A stretch of DNA of 64,000 bases from a virus (IMGVR_UViG_3300028887_000102:16595-80594), one strand, 5' to 3'; positions 3,157 to 12,638 are shown, counted from the first letter of the stretch. Notes: generated by a model not told the origin, from the letters alone. Numbers and translations are program-made.

Positions 3157-3435
3157 ATGGCTAACAAGATTACAAAAAGCATCACAAAGAATCTCATTGT
3201 TGAAATTCTTTCCAACATCCAATCGGAGATGACCTCGAAAGATTATGGTGCTAGGAACACTACCGGGTATGTAGCGATTGACGCTCTCCGTATGGCACTC
3301 GTCACCGAAAAGTTCCCCAACTCCATTGAGTATATGAATAAGGCTATCGGTTCGGTTAAGAAAGCCGGTTGTCAAGATAATCTTATGCGTTCTCTTGAGA
3401 CGATGAAATCTATCGTGGATGCCCAACAAAAATGA
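3157..3435 (+). CDS. Hypothetical protein
   Basis: ATG after AAAGGGGA RBS; start reassigned within the 2965..3435 ORF. Confidence 0.65.
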   Translation: MANKITKSITKNLIVEILSNIQSEMTSKDYGARNTTGYVAIDALRMALVTEKFPNSIEYMNKAIGSVKKAGCQDNLMRSLETMKSIVDAQQK

Positions 3436-3469: not shown

Positions 3470-4090
3470 ATGTCTAATAGCAACCTCAAACTTTTCTTGA
3501 ATATCAAATCGGGATTAGCCCCGATTCTCTATGATTATAAGACGGACAAGATTCTTGGTATGCAAACTAGCCGTCCGTCCGATGATTTCAACCCCGAAAC
3601 GATTACCGTCAATGGCGTCGTGTGGATGGCAGAGAACCTTTCCGTCACGGATAGCAAGGATGGGGCTTACTGGTCCGATAAGACCCACGAATGCTATTAC
3701 ACAAGGGATGGGATGCTCCGCATCGTCAAGAATCTTGAGGGATGGCATATCCCGACACACAAGGAATGGGGCGAACTCATTCTAGCAAAGGGTGCTTATC
3801 CGATTGATGACCCGACACACCAAGGGCAGCAGGGATTCTATACCGGGGGCAGGGCTATTCGCAACGACTTGAAGATTGCCACAATCGGAAGTTGGTACGG
3901 AGAAAAAACCGGTGGTGTCACATATCAAAGCGAGTTCGTCACATTCGCTACTAGAACAAGCATTGACGAGCATTCGTATGAAGCGATGACTTTCTATAAC
4001 GATTGCCACTATATGTCTGGCGATACCATCCGCAGGGAAAAGGAATGCAACTGGGTTGGTGTTGCCGTGAGACTTGTCAAGGATTATTAA
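3470..4090 (+). CDS. Fibrobacter succinogenes major paralogous domain (Fib_succ_major/FISUMP-like) protein
   Basis: TITVNGVVWMAENL ... GWHIPTHKEWGEL ... AVRLVKD motifs match the family pattern. Confidence 0.75.
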   Translation: MSNSNLKLFLNIKSGLAPILYDYKTDKILGMQTSRPSDDFNPETITVNGVVWMAENLSVTDSKDGAYWSDKTHECYYTRDGMLRIVKNLEGWHIPTHKEWGELILAKGAYPIDDPTHQGQQGFYTGGRAIRNDLKIATIGSWYGEKTGGVTYQSEFVTFATRTSIDEHSYEAMTFYNDCHYMSGDTIRREKECNWVGVAVRLVKDY

Positions 4091-5278: not shown

Positions 5279-6394
5279 ATGAATCTTACCGAATCCGCAA
5301 AGACCAAACTTTGGCAGGACATCGCATCCGGGATGAACAAGGCTTTCGGTTGCGACATTGGCGAAGCGTTCCATATTAACCAGTACAAGACCGGTTCGGT
5401 TCGCTTCACGGAATCCTTGGATGCAGGGGCTACTGCATCCGCTATCCAGGTGCTTGAAAGTGCATCTCCCGCAATTACGAAAGTCCGTATGACCCCGATT
5501 GCAAACGGCTATGAATCCGTATATGCTATTGACATTGACTTTAACCCTGCCATTGCAGAATCTTTCTATTCCGATGGCAAGAATACTCTTGCATCCATTG
5601 AAAAGGATGGCAAGAAGTATGTTGTACATAACGATGGCTCTGCCACCGAAGTTCAAGACCCCGACAAGTATGTAGATAACCTTAACAAGTCCACCGGTTC
5701 TAGGTTCAAGAAAGAATCCAAGGACGGACTTGAAGATGTGGTCAAACTCGCAAATGAAGCTCTGCAAGATACTGGGGTTTCCGTTGAACTCAACGAAAAG
5801 AAACTCATTCTTCGTGGTTCGGAAAGTCTTTTGAAACCGACCCAGAAGTATTTGCCGGCTATCGGCTACGATAGAGACACCATTGAGGGTGGCTATAACC
5901 CGGAATCGGGAGACCTTACCGTTGATATTCCCGACTACGCAAGTGACCTTGAAATGGAACTCTTGAGAACTTTCCTTGTTAATGCCGTGAACTATGTCAT
6001 CGACCAAGTTGAAAGCACACCTTGCTCCGAAGATGACGAATGGTGCAATGCCTACGCAGAAGCCGAACCCGATGAATCCTATGTGAGCAAACTGGCATAC
6101 AAGGGCGAATCTTTTGTGGGCAACGACAAGAAGAAAATCGCAACCCTTATCAAATCGGTGTGTGCCGAAGATTTTGAAAAGGGTAAGGAACTCGCAGAAC
6201 GATATATGGGCAAGAAACTTTGCGAACAGTTGCTCATCGCTCCCAAGGGTTCAAAGATTACCGAGAGTAAGAAAACGGCTCCCATCCTTGACGATGAAAT
6301 GACCTTGCTTGACAAGATGCACGAATCGGCAATGGCGGTAGCCCCCGAACATCGAACGGATTTGAAATCCCTCGTTGAAAAAAATGTAATGTAA
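5279..6394 (+). CDS. ES-motif-rich acidic protein (putative prohead core/internal head protein)
   Basis: 371 aa; many x-E-S sites (LTESAK, FTESLD, IAESFY, KKESKD, KGESFV, ITESKK, MHESAM); directly upstream of the sheath gene. Confidence 0.6.
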   Translation: MNLTESAKTKLWQDIASGMNKAFGCDIGEAFHINQYKTGSVRFTESLDAGATASAIQVLESASPAITKVRMTPIANGYESVYAIDIDFNPAIAESFYSDGKNTLASIEKDGKKYVVHNDGSATEVQDPDKYVDNLNKSTGSRFKKESKDGLEDVVKLANEALQDTGVSVELNEKKLILRGSESLLKPTQKYLPAIGYDRDTIEGGYNPESGDLTVDIPDYASDLEMELLRTFLVNAVNYVIDQVESTPCSEDDEWCNAYAEAEPDESYVSKLAYKGESFVGNDKKKIATLIKSVCAEDFEKGKELAERYMGKKLCEQLLIAPKGSKITESKKTAPILDDEMTLLDKMHESAMAVAPEHRTDLKSLVEKNVM

Positions 6395-6409
6395 AAAAGG
6401 AGACCAACA

Positions 6410-8692
6410 ATGCCTATTAACGATTCCGCTGGTGTTGGCGTATATCTTATTGACAAGTCGCAGAGGGCTTCCGTTGCTATCGGCTTCCGTTCCGCAGGAG
6501 CCATAGAAGCCGATAGGGGTCTCTGCAATACTCCCACCTTGATTTCCAGTGAAGCCGACTATGTAAAGATTTTCGGTTCTCCTAGTATGGAACGCCACGG
6601 ACTTGCCGCGATGGAAGCATATATGCTTGCCCAGCGAAAAGTTCCGCAGGTTCTTACAAGAGCAAAGAACCCGATGCTTACCCCGAATGACAATGTATTC
6701 GGCATGGTCAAATTCTTTATTGAAGACGGCAAGTTGAAGATTGACACCACGTCCCCGGCAACGGCTATCGTGGCACCGGTTGAAGAAAACGAATCCTTGC
6801 TCTTTTTCAAGGGCGAGGGTACATACCCGAAGAAACAGCCGGATGAAAGTGAACTTGTTCCGCGCAATTCTTCCAACATCGTTCTTCGTTTTAGCGAACC
6901 CATTACCCAGTCCGCTTATGCTACATCCGGTAGAACTCTCCGTGTGCAAGTCTATGACTTTGATGGTGCGAACCACATTGACAAGGACACCCACGCAGAA
7001 CTTGCATTCAACCCGGATGTAAGTAGCCTTATTGATGCCGATGGCAAGTTCAAGTTGGACGGCTACAAGGTTGGCCCGGAAGATGTTTCGGGTTCGGGTC
7101 TTGACACCCTGCCCGTAAAAATCACGGCTTTCGTCAATGGTCGTTCTTACCAGAAAATCTTTGATTACAATTCCATTGATGCTAATGGCATCTACGAATG
7201 GATTAAGACGGTTGTTTGCCAAGTTGAAGACTCTAGCAACAACCCGATAATCAAAGAAGACTGGATGCAGTATGTGCCGAACGATAGTTCCGCAAACGAT
7301 GGTCTTGGCGAAGGTGGCTACTATCTTCTTGACTCCCGCGAAGAAGACAAGGGATATGCCCAGCAACTCAACTGTTTTGGTCTTTCCGTCACTATCACGA
7401 TTGAAGCGATTCTTCCGATTTCCGAAGAAGACGAACCGGGTCATCGTAAGCTCTCCGCAGGGTTCTACGGCTATCCGTGTGGTAGCGTGAATGTGACCAA
7501 GCAGAACAACCAAGGTTCTATTACCTACTCTGCAAAGTTCAACATTAGTACGAACTTGTATCTCAAGAATCGCACCGACTATATGTATATGGGTCCGCAG
7601 AACTCCTACTGGGCTTCTTACTACCAGACCTATTGCAAGGATGATGCGGTTGTAAGTTTCTCGTATGACGATTACGATGCAAACTACATTACGATGCAGG
7701 CTGATGCCGTTCTCAACGGCTCTAACTATGTTGTACCGAAGTCTAGCGAAACCTTTGGCGATTACAGAATTGACTACGCCACGGATGAAATCACAACGAA
7801 GTTGCACTACTTTGAGGGCGAGATTGAAGAAAATACAATCGCCATCGCCCAGAAGTCCCATGCATACTCCATTGTTCTGCAAAACTTGCTTGCGGACAAC
7901 CTTGTTCGTTGGCGTTGCCTTGCAACTCCGAACCTTGGTGACGTGATGATTCAAGCGGACTTTATTGAAGCCATTACCAAAGCGGAAGAATCCACTCTTG
8001 GTATCTCCAATATCGGTCGCGCCGCATCTACCAATGTCTTCGGTACTGGCAATATGGGTGGCCGTCACGGCAACCGCTTCATCGCAGACTATGCCCAATA
8101 TGCTTATCGCACTCTTGCCGGTAAGAGAACCGCAGTCACGATGGCAAGCCTTGTCACGGACTTGCTCAACACCCACTACAACGAGGGTATTGAAGCCCGC
8201 CCGCCGTTTGGCTACAACTACGGACAAATTACTTGTTTGTCCTTGTCGCAGCAATACTCCGGGGCAGAGCGTAATATTCTTGCTCGTCAGTACAAGATTA
8301 ACCCGGTCATTGAAGATGGTGGCTTCTTTATTTGGGAAGAAAGAACATCTCAAATTACCGACACCTCGCTTTCGGACATCCATAGCATCATTTCGTTTAT
8401 CTGGATGAAGTTTGCTATCTACGATGCAATGAAAGCATTCGTTGCCGAATACAACGATGAAGAAACGGTTAATCGTGGTCTCGCAGTCTTGAACCAGTTG
8501 AACCAAACATTCATTACTCGCAAATACATTGAAGAAGGCATCGTCTCTGCCGATAAGAATGTCATCGGCGATGAAGTTCTCCGCTTTGACTATGCCGTAA
8601 GATTCAAGGGTGTTGCCCGCTTTGTGGATGTTTACATCACCGCTTACAGCCAGACTCAAACTCTTGCCGTAAGCCTTGCAGAGGAGGCTTAA
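6410..8692 (+). CDS. Contractile tail sheath protein
   Basis: 760 aa; N-terminal GVGVYLIDKS; C-terminal YKINPVIEDGGFFIWEERT...AFVAEYNDEET...VRFKGVARFVDVYIT is typical of gp18-like sheaths. Confidence 0.85.
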   Translation: MPINDSAGVGVYLIDKSQRASVAIGFRSAGAIEADRGLCNTPTLISSEADYVKIFGSPSMERHGLAAMEAYMLAQRKVPQVLTRAKNPMLTPNDNVFGMVKFFIEDGKLKIDTTSPATAIVAPVEENESLLFFKGEGTYPKKQPDESELVPRNSSNIVLRFSEPITQSAYATSGRTLRVQVYDFDGANHIDKDTHAELAFNPDVSSLIDADGKFKLDGYKVGPEDVSGSGLDTLPVKITAFVNGRSYQKIFDYNSIDANGIYEWIKTVVCQVEDSSNNPIIKEDWMQYVPNDSSANDGLGEGGYYLLDSREEDKGYAQQLNCFGLSVTITIEAILPISEEDEPGHRKLSAGFYGYPCGSVNVTKQNNQGSITYSAKFNISTNLYLKNRTDYMYMGPQNSYWASYYQTYCKDDAVVSFSYDDYDANYITMQADAVLNGSNYVVPKSSETFGDYRIDYATDEITTKLHYFEGEIEENTIAIAQKSHAYSIVLQNLLADNLVRWRCLATPNLGDVMIQADFIEAITKAEESTLGISNIGRAASTNVFGTGNMGGRHGNRFIADYAQYAYRTLAGKRTAVTMASLVTDLLNTHYNEGIEARPPFGYNYGQITCLSLSQQYSGAERNILARQYKINPVIEDGGFFIWEERTSQITDTSLSDIHSIISFIWMKFAIYDAMKAFVAEYNDEETVNRGLAVLNQLNQTFITRKYIEEGIVSADKNVIGDEVLRFDYAVRFKGVARFVDVYITAYSQTQTLAVSLAEEA

Positions 8693-8695
8693 AAT

Positions 8696-9301
8696 ATGCC
8701 GCAGAATGTCAGACTTTCGGAACTCTTGGGCGAAAACTTTAAAGCCTACAACTATATGGTTTCGTCTAACTGGCGAATCGACTTTAGCAACTGTCGTGAG
8801 TTGGTTGAGTTGATTAAGAATGCCCCACAAGGAGACTCATCCATTGGGGCATCCGTGCCGGAGCAGATGTCTTTTGCTTGCCATTCCAATTTCCAATTTG
8901 AATTGGATGTTGAATATGCGGAAGCCGAAGTCAAGGGTATGCATATCTCTCAAGCCGCTTGGCAAGACCGATTCATTGAATCCCAAGACATTGACATCTA
9001 TGAAAGCATGGACCATAGAATCTTCAAGGCTCTCGTCACGGCAGCCAACAACACGGCCGGCTACTATGAGCATAGGAACATCAATGACAAGAAAGAATAT
9101 ACTTTCTCCGGCATTACCGTTCAAGCTCTTGGCAACTCGTCTGGTGGTGGCGAACCGTCTTCGGAACTTGTCTATACACTCCTTGGTGTGCAGATTAACA
9201 CCGTGCAGTCTCCCGAATACACATCGGATTCCGCAGAAATCGGCTCCGTGAAGTTGAACATCCGCGCACACGGATGGGCAATCGTGGACGGCAAGACCTA
9301 A
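8696..9301 (+). CDS. Tail tube protein (putative)
   Basis: 201 aa, immediately after the sheath; predicted beta-rich; followed by a terminator. Confidence 0.7.
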   Translation: MPQNVRLSELLGENFKAYNYMVSSNWRIDFSNCRELVELIKNAPQGDSSIGASVPEQMSFACHSNFQFELDVEYAEAEVKGMHISQAAWQDRFIESQDIDIYESMDHRIFKALVTAANNTAGYYEHRNINDKKEYTFSGITVQALGNSSGGGEPSSELVYTLLGVQINTVQSPEYTSDSAEIGSVKLNIRAHGWAIVDGKT

Positions 9302-9806: not shown

Positions 9807-10514
9807 ATGCTCATACCAGTAAACAAACTCCCGTCCAATTTCAAGCCGTATGATTTCAAGTCGTTTACGATGAAAGCAATCAATGCGGAACAAGCCATCA
9901 ACTTGGGTCCAGAACCGACCCTTATGGACATCCGTAAGCTCATCCAAACTCTTGTGAACGATGAGATTGATGCAAGCAAACTTGTACCTATCGACTTGAA
10001 GTACCTTGTGGCAATGCTTGCATTCCACGCATATCCAAAGCAATCGTGGACTCTCAAATTGACTTGCCCCGAATGTGGACACCATCACACAAAGGTTGTG
10101 GAAATGAAAGACTTTCCCCCAGTGCCGAGCCTTTCGGATGATGACCCCTACCCACTTACTATTGACGATGGTAAACACGTCTATGAACTAGGCTATGCAT
10201 CGGTGGAAGCGATTAGCGGAATTGAAGTAGGCAAGTCCGAAAACATTGATGTCATTGCCGCCCACATCATTTCCATTGACGGCAATACGGATGACATCAA
10301 GAAGAAGTTGCTTGAGATTGAAGATTTCGGTGTTCTTGGTTTGATGTACCAAGCCATCTTGAAATACTTTGAAGTCGAAACCTATGCGGAGTTCAAATGC
10401 CCCAAATGCGAAAAGACTTACAAGGTCGCAATGAGTGCTATTGAGGTCACTCAATACACTCCGTTTCTTGACGAGAAAACGCCTAGCCGATATAAGACTA
10501 ATTTTAGGCTTTGA
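9807..10514 (+). CDS. Baseplate hub/tail assembly chaperone (T4 gp26/gp51-like) with two CxxC motifs
   Basis: LTCPECGHHH and FKCPKCEK; lies before the tape-measure-like gene; ends YKTNFRL. Confidence 0.7.
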   Translation: MLIPVNKLPSNFKPYDFKSFTMKAINAEQAINLGPEPTLMDIRKLIQTLVNDEIDASKLVPIDLKYLVAMLAFHAYPKQSWTLKLTCPECGHHHTKVVEMKDFPPVPSLSDDDPYPLTIDDGKHVYELGYASVEAISGIEVGKSENIDVIAAHIISIDGNTDDIKKKLLEIEDFGVLGLMYQAILKYFEVETYAEFKCPKCEKTYKVAMSAIEVTQYTPFLDEKTPSRYKTNFRL

Positions 10515-10617
10515 TTTCAATATGCAACTTTCCCTAGCCGAGATAGAAGACTATCTCCGTGCTAGAGAAGAAATGCTGGAGAAAGAAAAGCGGAACAACA
10601 ATAAGAAAAAGGTATAG
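10509..10617 (+). other. Predicted +1 frameshift site (CTT TGA) and C-terminal extension DFNMQLSLAEIEDYLRAREEMLEKEKRNNNKKKV
   Basis: The +1 frame is open across the TGA and ends 2 nt before the next ATG. Confidence 0.65.
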
Positions 10618-10619
10618 TT

Positions 10620-12638
10620 ATGGCATTGACGCTTGAACAACTTTTTGAAAATATGCGAAGCACCACGGAGTCCAAAGAAGATGGAAACCCGTTGAAAGAT
10701 ATTTTCAATCGGGCGTTCAAGTCGTTTGATGGTGTGGCTAATAGTCTCAAGAACCTTTCCGAACAAATCAAGGTCCAGAATGCCCAAAACCAAACCGCCC
10801 GATTAACCGGTGCGGCATCGGATGTTCAATCCCAAATCCGTGAATTGCTCCAAGCAAAAATCGCAGAAGACCAGATTGAATCCGAACGAAACAAAAGGAT
10901 GATGGACATTGCCGAAAGGCTCGTTCCCCAAGTGACGGAAGAACAACTCAAGGCATTCCGTATGCAACAGTTGTTGTTTAAGGAACACCAAAAGACACTT
11001 GAGAACACCCTTGACATCGAGAAGAAAAAAGCCGAAGTTCAAAAGCAAGCCGCACAAGATATGGCTAATCGGCAGATAGCCACTATCAAGGACAAGTATG
11101 GTACTTTTGAATCCGCTATCGCAGGTGCCGGTAATATGGCACAAGACTCGCTATCAAAATACTTGATTAGCGGTCTTGGTCGTTTTGTAAAAGAACGAAA
11201 AGAAGACCCCCAGATAGCACGTGCGAACACCATCACCGAAAACAAGAAGAACCTTGCGGACAAGATGCTTGCTACCCGGACGGACAATATCAAAGAAGAT
11301 TTTGCCATCCGTGCCGCAAAGCAACACATCGCAGACCCCGGCTCTGCATCCAAGCTCTATGCCGAAAGGGATTCCGATGTCAAGAGCCTTGCATCGCAGG
11401 GGGCATCCATTGAAAAGGGATTGGCTTCTGGCAAGTACAAGTTCTCATTGCCCAAGGTTGAAAAGGCAATGTCCGATGTTGCCAAGGCTATCAAGGGCGA
11501 AGACACACCCAATATTGCTAAAGCGGACATTGCCGAGATTCAAGAGATTCCGGAAATCACAAAGGATAGCATAAATAAGTTGCTTGACTTTGAGCCACCC
11601 ACCGTTGAAGCAAAGGTGGATGCACCGAACCCCCCGAAGACCGAACCTACGGCAAAGATAGAACCGAACCCCCCGAAAGCCGTACCTACGGAAAAGAAAG
11701 AACCGACACCAAAGAAAGCTCCGAAGAATGCAAAGATGCAGAAAGCCACACGGCAGAGTTCATCCTTGCTTACTCCGGCAACAAAGCGAACACCCCAGAC
11801 CACAAGGATTGCCCCCGCAACTCCTATGAAAGCGGGTGCGACTAAAAATGCCGTCAAGACGGCAAGTGTCGGTGTAAAAGCCACAAAGACCGGGGCATCC
11901 GTTGCTTCGGGAGCAAGGGCGGTTGGAGCATTCGGTAGCAAAGCCGGTGCCATCAATGTGGGTGCAATCGGTTCGGCGCTAGGCTCTATGTCTGCCAAAC
12001 TTGGTACACTCGCTAGTTCATCTCTCAAGTTCCTTGGACCCTGGGGAATGGTGGCTAGTGCCGTAATGTCTTTTGATAGACTTGTTCCTATCATAAGCCA
12101 AGGTGTAGGAGCAATCCTTGACATAACAAAAGTTATTATGCCCCTACTCGTTTCCAGTATCATAGAGGGGTTTGCTCAAGGTGTCGGCGCTTTGAATGGT
12201 CTTATCAACTTGTTAGACCACGCACCACTTTTCGGTAGAAAATGGACGGAATCGGGAGAAGTCACGAAAGCCGTAGCATCCGAAAGGGATAAAGAAGCCG
12301 AACGGCAAACCAGATTGAGTACGGCAAAGAAGCAAGCCGCCTTGGGTGGTGGTACACTTGACACGACATCTGCCGTCAAGGGTGTTAATGCAGGGTTCGC
12401 ACAAGTTGGAAAGCCCCTTGTGACGAGACAAGAAACGACTCTCACGAACCCGGCAGAAGCGGCTAGGGTCTCCGCACCCCCTCCGCAAGAACCCCAGCAG
12501 AACTTTTCTATGGACGATTGGAAACAACAAACAGAGCAAAACCAAGCGATGCGAGAAGCCGTACTCGCGGCATCCAAGAATCCGGGAACTACACCGATTA
12601 TGGTGTCTAGTCCTTATATGGAGCCGTGGCCGGCTTGA
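10620..12638 (+). CDS. Tape-measure/hub-like protein (T4 gp29-like position)
   Basis: 672 aa; coiled-coil N-terminus, Pro/Lys/Thr-rich linker, Ala/Gly-rich hydrophobic segment; follows the chaperone gene. Confidence 0.6.
   Translation: MALTLEQLFENMRSTTESKEDGNPLKDIFNRAFKSFDGVANSLKNLSEQIKVQNAQNQTARLTGAASDVQSQIRELLQAKIAEDQIESERNKRMMDIAERLVPQVTEEQLKAFRMQQLLFKEHQKTLENTLDIEKKKAEVQKQAAQDMANRQIATIKDKYGTFESAIAGAGNMAQDSLSKYLISGLGRFVKERKEDPQIARANTITENKKNLADKMLATRTDNIKEDFAIRAAKQHIADPGSASKLYAERDSDVKSLASQGASIEKGLASGKYKFSLPKVEKAMSDVAKAIKGEDTPNIAKADIAEIQEIPEITKDSINKLLDFEPPTVEAKVDAPNPPKTEPTAKIEPNPPKAVPTEKKEPTPKKAPKNAKMQKATRQSSSLLTPATKRTPQTTRIAPATPMKAGATKNAVKTASVGVKATKTGASVASGARAVGAFGSKAGAINVGAIGSALGSMSAKLGTLASSSLKFLGPWGMVASAVMSFDRLVPIISQGVGAILDITKVIMPLLVSSIIEGFAQGVGALNGLINLLDHAPLFGRKWTESGEVTKAVASERDKEAERQTRLSTAKKQAALGGGTLDTTSAVKGVNAGFAQVGKPLVTRQETTLTNPAEAARVSAPPPQEPQQNFSMDDWKQQTEQNQAMREAVLAASKNPGTTPIMVSSPYMEPWPA

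Follow-up and report, generated by a model that had tools for sequence, protein, structure and literature searches.

We studied the gene for a putative tail assembly chaperone in a stretch of DNA of 64,000 nucleotides (nt) from an uncultured phage (IMGVR_UViG_3300028887_000102:16595-80594; hereafter the window, with positions counted from its first letter). The source record is 80.6 kb long and is estimated to be ~37% complete, which would imply a genome of roughly 215 kb. On the + strand, positions 9807-10514 carry an open reading frame (ORF) for a protein of 235 amino acids (aa). It matches the Pfam family PF12322 (T4_baseplate; 38.1 bits against a cut-off of 24.5, over residues 5-209) as well as phrog_150, labelled "baseplate hub". 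The protein thus belongs to the family of T4 gp26 and gp51, in agreement with the original prediction from the sequence, which had called it gp51-like and placed it before a tape-measure-like gene. The ORF ends AAT TTT AGG CTT TGA, with CTT at 10509-10511 and the stop codon TGA at 10512-10514. The +1 frame stays open to TAG at 10615-10617, 2 nt before the next ATG at 10620, and the -1 frame closes within 8 codons. This layout had been correctly read in the original prediction, and skipping T10512 does give DFNMQLSLAEIEDYLRAREEMLEKEKRNNNKKKV. The idea that a +1 shift makes a short and a long chaperone also holds up as very probable, with a long form of 269 aa, but the site of the shift is not CUU_UGA. 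We propose that a programmed +1 ribosomal frameshift very probably takes place at CCG_UUU_C (10461-10467), 45 nt upstream of CUU_UGA, where the fold of the PF12322 domain ends on its C-terminal side.

A protein search returned 72 relatives, 30 of which were aligned (47-83% identity). The stop codon falls in the same column in all 30, with endings of the form ...NFR[LIV]. The close relatives at the DNA level comprise 24 distinct sequences from independent metagenomes (IMG/VR and metagenome contigs). All 24 keep the +1 frame open as far as the next gene, and the peptide that it encodes is conserved (...LAE[VI]ED[YF]LRAREEML..., followed by a basic end). Upstream of the frame-0 stop, the +1 frame reads F[LVM]TR[KQR][RQ]LA[DSN]I[RK]LILG[FY][DN] in every close sequence. 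The +1-frame coding region of the long form (10465-10617, + strand) comprises 50 codons, FLTRKRLADIRLILGFDFNMQLSLAEIEDYLRAREEMLEKEKRNNNKKKV, and then TAG; residues F1, T3, R4, L7, A8, L12, I13, L14, G15, A25, E26, D29, R34 and E35 of this extension are invariant among 20 aligned relatives. An error of sequencing or assembly, or the recent inactivation by mutation of a normally single-frame gene, had been allowed for in the original prediction and would account for the bare fact of two frames. We give it practically no credence, since the same two-frame layout is found in the 24 close sequences, which are independent assemblies, and also in 11 distant metagenomic lineages and in cultured phages of five groups.

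We then compared the two frames by the ratio of nonsynonymous to synonymous differences (pN/pS), using Nei-Gojobori counts over all pairs of the 24 close sequences. In the four codons before TTT (10464-10466), pN/pS is 0.10 in frame 0 and 6.05 in frame +1. From TTT to the frame-0 stop, the order is reversed (1.12 in frame 0 versus 0.14 in frame +1), and it stays so downstream of the stop (1.54 versus 0.28). The switch of purifying selection from frame 0 to frame +1 therefore maps to the TTT codon of residue F220. Individual changes show the same pattern. AGA CTA and AGG TTA both encode R-L in the +1 frame and give T or V in frame 0, and Arg AGG/CGG and the GTG to GTA change in one close relative (L027) are likewise synonymous in +1 and nonsynonymous in frame 0.

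These results bear directly on the prfB-like slip that had first been proposed, in which tRNA-Leu on CUU would re-pair with UUU at the UGA stop (10509-10514), giving ...YKTNFRL-DFNMQ..., with a ratio of the two forms that might be set by release factor 2 (RF2). CTT TGA is indeed present in the window and in the majority of the 24 close relatives, the variants ATT TGA and GTT TGA could also re-pair on UUU, and the U that opens the stop codon is kept in 23 of 24. It is also true that YQINHTL in T4 gp51 resembles YKTNFRL and is followed by further in-frame sequence. The gp51 string given in the original prediction differs from what T4 gp51 reads at that position. However, selection on the +1 frame upstream of the stop would be unexpected if ribosomes entered this frame only at CUU_UGA, and the strong purifying selection on the 15 +1 codons before it is left unexplained. 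The hexamer itself varies. The original prediction had looked to CTTTGA being conserved together with an open +1 frame; the open frame is present in all 24 close relatives, but the hexamer is replaced in some by ATT TGA, GTT TGA, CTA TGA or CTA TAA. The CUA_UGA and CUA_UAA relatives (L006, L008 and L040) would be unable to re-pair. Another relative, L007, has no stop at this position; its displaced stop reads CTA CAA CCT TGA, in which the change from TAA to CAA is a synonymous TAT to TAC change in the +1 frame. Among 16 distant lineages CUU_UGA is never found, and their stop contexts include GGG TGA, GTG TAA, GTA TAA, GGC TAG and ACG TAA. Nor is there a Shine-Dalgarno (SD) sequence 3 nt upstream of CTT, as had already been remarked. 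A slip at CUU_UGA is therefore very unlikely, and the ratio of the short and long forms is not expected to depend on RF2.

The codon at which selection switches is conserved in a way that fits re-pairing. F220 is encoded by TTT in all 24 close relatives, whereas TTC is the choice in 18-22 of the 24 at each of seven other Phe positions conserved in the gene. The next base is C in 23 sequences and T in one. Because the base after the F220 codon is always a pyrimidine, tRNA-Phe can always re-pair one base forward, and this is so even though the frame-0 residue after F220 may be L, R, H or F, and Q or C in distant relatives. The frame-0 codon in the ribosomal A site would be CGU or CGA in 8 of the 13 lineages with a UUU_Y site (Y, pyrimidine) and in four close relatives (L027, L029, L031 and L032). 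A second in-frame TTT_C is present in the window at F103 (GAC TTT CCC, 10111-10117) and in 4 of the 24 relatives, the others having TTC; slippage at F103 would presumably lead to premature termination.

In the proposed mechanism, the majority of ribosomes would stay in frame 0, add the 15-residue tail LDEKTPSRYKTNFRL (residues 221-235) and terminate at TGA 10512, which would yield the short form of 235 aa. A minority would slip with peptidyl-tRNA-Phe in the P site, from UUU (10464-10466) to UUC (10465-10467), and would read 49 further +1 codons to TAG 10615. The predicted long form thus comprises residues 1-219 and the 50 residues of the extension, 269 aa in total. Its residues 221-235 are predicted to be LTRKRLADIRLILGF in place of LDEKTPSRYKTNFRL, and the peptide across the junction of frame 0 and frame +1 would be VAMSAIEVTQYTPFLTR. 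Comparison of sequences shows where the frame switches, that a re-pairing codon is conserved, that the overlap is dual-coding and that start codons are lacking in most lineages; from this we infer that the slip is ribosomal.

The segment 10465-10514 (+ strand) is dual-coding: frame 0 encodes the tail of the short form, and the +1 frame encodes the first 16 residues of the extension. Frame 0 is still constrained near its end, where the first positions of the codons for Y, K, N, F, R and the stop, which are third positions in the +1 frame, are invariant or nearly so. AAT TTT AGG, which lies within this overlap, is invariant at the nucleotide level in all close relatives. This invariance is explained by double reading: from the slip site to the frame-0 stop, ~45-48 nt serve both frames. 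The same conservation could be taken to favor a Ty1-like slip at UUU_AGG_C (10503-10509), a heptamer that resembles CUU_AGG_C of Ty1, with AGG as a hungry codon. Yet AGG makes up 17% of the Arg codons and so is not rare, selection on the +1 frame begins 13 codons earlier, and TTT GGG or TTT GGC takes its place in distant relatives. With dual coding accounting for the invariance, neither UUU_AGG_C nor CUU_UGA is needed to explain it, and we consider the Ty1-like slip still less probable than the prfB-like one. No tRNA genes were found in the 64-kb window.

We next asked how far the layout extends. A profile search of 1.84 billion representative proteins identified 111 family members, and cultured relatives were reached by tblastn with distant family members. 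In all, 17 lineages were tabulated, 16 of them distant (11 metagenomic lineages and cultured phages of five groups). In the 11 distant metagenomic lineages the gene order is unchanged, and a comparable +1 ORF begins within the last 14-19 frame-0 codons. Synteny and a similar +1 ORF are retained in 16 of 16 distant lineages, and at this same domain boundary each has a codon that can re-pair perfectly one base forward. Their sites are CCN_UUU_Y in 12, CCC_N in three and CCC_UAG in one. Thus, a conserved in-frame UUU on which tRNA-Phe could re-pair lies at the switch point in all close relatives and in 13 of the 17 lineages, the remaining lineages being of the CCC type. Among the cultured phages, Escherichia coli phages vB_EcoM_IME392 and EP_H11 carry CCG_TTT_CGT_A, and Vibrio phage GR7B and Rhizobium phage RHph_TM30 carry CCC_TTT_CGT_C. 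In Yersinia phage YerA41 (L059, MW570730; locus ~3200-3350), the frame-0 gene ends TAT CCC TAG and the extension continues in the +1 frame from CCT; this would be a CCC_U slip assisted by the stop codon, as in the tsh gene of Listeria phage PSA, so that the short form would have no tail of its own. No frameshift is annotated in the records of IME392, EP_H11, GR7B, RHph_TM30 or YerA41. Searches of the phage collection by blastn and tblastn with the window region and its product gave no match, and neither did a scan of IMG/VR loci with the alignment of distant relatives.

The distant lineages also help to decide whether the +1 ORF could be a separate small gene, started at TTG 10468 or ATG 10522, perhaps by re-initiation after TGA 10512, and yielding a free peptide of 32-49 aa. 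Of 22 close relatives, 21 have TTG, ATG or GTG after the site, as do several distant relatives, and a GAGGT lies upstream. In addition, RefSeq annotates the counterpart ORF in RHph_TM30 as a separate 49-aa protein. On the other hand, only 5 of the 13 UUU_Y lineages have a start-capable codon after the site; the codon is GTA, GTC, AAG or GAG in the other 8, and L027, within the close family, is among those that cannot start there. No start codon (ATG, GTG or TTG) occurs between the upstream +1 stop and the site in 10 of the 17 lineages. These observations exclude, in most of the family, a small gene with its own start. The +1 Phe codon TTY just before the candidate start is invariant, unlike an untranslated codon, and GAGGT stands 20 nt from TTG 10468, which is too far for an SD sequence by the usual spacing rules. 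Independent translation from ATG 10522, which the original prediction had considered, is opposed by the invariance of the +1 residues upstream of this ATG. Furthermore, relatives exist in which the two parts are fused in frame. A separate gene is possible for the lineage of the window taken alone, because of TTG 10468, but the rest of the family contradicts it, and we regard it as improbable overall, though less so than a slip at either of the other two sites considered above.

The annotation in RHph_TM30 (L057, NC_070966) deserves a comment of its own. The 49-aa hypothetical protein gp294 (locus 3734-3883) corresponds to part of the +1 extension and overlaps the PF12322 gene, which is itself labelled "peptidase domain-containing protein". 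We think that the frameshifted long form has probably been mis-annotated here as gp294.

To compare the extension with family members that are long in a single frame, hidden Markov models (HMMs) of the extension were searched against the family. A first HMM, built mostly from close relatives, found no in-frame relative. With one sequence per lineage, the top three of 184 family proteins were the C-termini of in-frame long relatives (P0110, E 0.007; P0124, 0.023; P0161, 0.36), and these matches are weak but correctly placed. Pairwise BLAST of the extension against T4 gp51 gave no match beyond the zinc-ribbon motifs. In T4 itself, a +1 ORF is absent at the 3' ends of genes 26 and 51.

Upstream of the site, a consensus RNA hairpin was predicted by alifold at 10432-10453 (+ strand), formed by TGAGTG (10432-10437) and CACTCA (10448-10453). 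In the window, 10 nt separate its 3' edge from the slip codon; across the relatives the distance is 9-11 nt. The third positions of the codons AGT, GAG, GTC and ACT are invariant in 22 sequences. In distant UUU_Y lineages a hairpin is found at the same place with different stems, namely TGGAG/CTCCA, GTAGAG/CTCTAC, GGTGGAC/GTCCACC, TGTAGAG/CTCTACA and AGTGGAT/ATCCACT; the stem in GR7B is AACATAGAG/CTCTATGTT. In a gapless alignment of eight sequences, 78.6% of the cells are paired as compared with 61.7% in shuffles, and none of 500 shuffles reached as high a value. Four of the hairpin pairs have changed on both sides, in part at third positions that are silent in codons for Val and Ser. On 70S ribosomes, hairpins upstream of the site have been shown to stimulate +1 shifts, and those tested were adjacent to the E site (PMC6321510). 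We regard the hairpin as a candidate 5' stimulator of the slip. An alternative local pairing is available in the window between TATTGAG (10439-10445) and CTCAATA (10450-10456). A downstream consensus RNA structure was not found by alifold, and z-scores of single sequences are ~0 to 1.

The loop of the hairpin (10438-10447 in the window, and in relatives) nearly always contains GGAGGU or GAGGU, in codons for L-E-V. GGAGGU is 16 nt from the P-site codon. It is too far away for an SD effect of the prfB type, just as it is too far to serve as the SD sequence of TTG 10468.

Several observations weigh against a programmed slip at CCG_UUU_C. The frame-0 A-site codon in the window is CUU, the commonest Leu codon (37% of Leu codons), so that no slow A-site codon is present and the efficiency of slippage is probably low. 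An in-frame TTT_C is tolerated at F103, and the tetranucleotide alone is therefore insufficient as a signal. The codon after the site in the window is TTG (10468), which on sequence alone could be an independent start. The spacing of 9-11 nt is unlike that of the E-site-adjacent hairpins (PMC6321510), and the three CCC_N lineages lack an evident hairpin. Finally, the extension resembles the in-frame long relatives weakly, and homology of the gp51 tail of T4 to the +1 extension could not be demonstrated with the extension HMMs.

The frame-0 protein has two CxxC zinc ribbons. In an AlphaFold2 model of the short form (predicted local distance difference test, pLDDT, 79), the fold reaches about residue 216 and is followed by a disordered segment with pLDDT below 50 (residues 217-235). 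The slip site therefore falls at a domain boundary, and according to the model the tails of the short and long forms are alternative appendages to the PF12322 domain. The long form would end in a conserved helical and charged extension. Matches of the model in BFVD are gp26, baseplate hub subunit or assembly chaperone models from large myoviruses (template modeling (TM) scores of 0.5-0.7, E down to 4e-10). A solved homologue of the short-form model was not found by Foldseek in the PDB, and the window protein matched none of the tail assembly chaperone families of Pfam or PHROG. A complex prediction for the tube protein and the 50-aa extension scored 0.00, below the mark, which is evidence neither way.

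T4 gp26 (208 aa) and gp51 (249 aa) score 216 and 178 bits against PF12322, respectively, and because both match strongly they can be considered paralogues. Pairwise BLAST of the whole window product against the two proteins matched the zinc-ribbon motifs alone. In the T4 genome (AF158101), gp26 ends about where the slip site sits in the window protein, and gp51 runs ~48 residues beyond the domain. The two systems thus share the Pfam family, with 38 bits for the window protein, and a short form together with a form ~40-50 aa longer. They differ in that T4 has two separate genes, which are not directly before the tape measure gene 29. In T4, genetics indicates that gp26 and gp51 are required for hub assembly and are not found in the virion (Leiman 2010, PMC3004832).

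Frameshifting in the tail chaperone gene is a textbook feature of long-tailed phages, and the work of Xu, Hendrix and Duda in 2004 reportedly describes the conservation of this frameshift. G-T frameshifting has been described as conserved in long-tailed phages "except T4" (Atkins 2016 review, PMC5009743). Like lambda G, the window gene lies between genes that would, by their inferred identities, encode tube and tape measure, and its two predicted products share an N-terminal domain, with the shift near the 3' end. By contrast, the shift here would be +1 rather than -1, no X_XXY_YYZ heptamer is found at the switch point, the window protein is of an unrelated family, and the short form ends in a conserved 15-residue tail of its own, encoded where the two reading frames overlap. 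In tail or hub assembly, the short form and the long form may divide the labor as gpG and gpGT do.

Having short and long paralogues of the same family in T4 suggests that gene duplication may have replaced recoding there. Going further, it is conceivable, although we would not yet favor it, that the PF12322 proteins gp26 and gp51 are the counterparts of lambda G/GT in T4-related and other large myoviruses, that recoding of a single gene into short and long forms (at UUU_Y or CCC_N in the lineages studied here) is ancestral, and that T4 exchanged the frameshift for duplication into genes 26 and 51. As part of the same tentative proposal, the +1 slip would resemble that of PA-X and, helped by a hairpin at the mRNA exit, would represent an undescribed bacterial +1 signal. 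If this is true, T4 is the textbook exception to the tail-chaperone frameshift because the duplication into genes 26 and 51 replaced it. Conserved recoding of PF12322 genes that precede the tape measure in many large myoviruses would by itself connect the poorly understood hub "catalysts" of T4 to the frameshift rule of tail chaperones and would hint at what gp26 and gp51 do. We found no published report or database record of a frameshift in the PF12322 family.

The closest likeness of the slip itself is to influenza A virus PA-X, in which tRNA-Phe slips in the P site from UUU to UUC at UUU_C (PMC3498833). The PA-X site UCC_UUU_CGU_C and the amalgavirus site UUU_CGN share P-site re-pairing on UUU_C with the site proposed here, and many relatives of the window have exactly UUU_CGU. 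They differ in that ours is a bacterial system, that the A-site codon in the window is CUU and that a conserved upstream hairpin is present. We know of no indication that CGU is rare in the hosts of these phages. With respect to CUU_UGA_C of prfB, the window shares the CTT TGA hexamer and the +1 direction, but it has no SD sequence 3 nt upstream, the hexamer is not conserved and the frame changes 45 nt upstream. In tsh, another phage tail gene, ribosomes of the hosts of Listeria phages PSA, A118 and A500 likewise shift +1 on a codon that allows re-pairing, at CCC_UGA, a site echoed by TAT_CCC_TAG in YerA41 and by CCC_N in three metagenomic lineages; tsh, however, encodes the major tail protein and not a chaperone, and the window uses UUU_C far from the stop. 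The site proposed here would thus be a different kind of bacterial +1 site, consisting of UUU_C and an upstream hairpin with neither a stop nor a rare codon, and it would entail a 45-nt stretch that is read in two frames. It would also matter for annotation: none of the records examined includes the long form, and in RHph_TM30 its second part appears as a separate small gene.

The neighboring genes all lie on the + strand. A 760-aa tail sheath gene (6410-8692) matches phrog_23 (tail sheath, E 5e-18), and Pfam Phage_sheath_1 is found at the same position in relatives. Directly after it, a 201-aa gene (8696-9301) is by position the probable tail tube gene. The 201-aa protein has no family match of its own in Pfam and PHROG searches; the genes at this position in relatives have weak gp19 or Phage_TTP_2 matches or are annotated as tail tube. 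A 170-aa ORF separates it from the PF12322 gene. The 672-aa gene that follows (10620-12638) is tape-measure-like, an identity taken from its position after the chaperone gene, and its product has no family match and no PDB match by phmmer. A large gene follows the PF12322 gene in every relative examined, and in cultured relatives it is labelled "putative tail protein", in some cases with lytic domains. The order of sheath, tube, one further gene, PF12322 gene and large tail protein is thus common to the window and its relatives.

The junction between the extension and the next gene varies in some lineages. In L051, the +1 extension (56 aa) passes the called start of the next gene, which is in the third frame, so that the extension and the tape-measure gene may overlap. 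In the most divergent branch of the close relatives (L006, L008 and L040), a GC-rich inverted repeat, GCGGCGGCGG...CGCCGC, lies in the gap that separates the extension from the next gene; it resembles a terminator or processing hairpin and is absent from the window. On the - strand of the window, an 859-aa ORF (6251-8830) runs antisense to the whole sheath gene and is probably a shadow of the codon bias of that gene rather than a gene itself.

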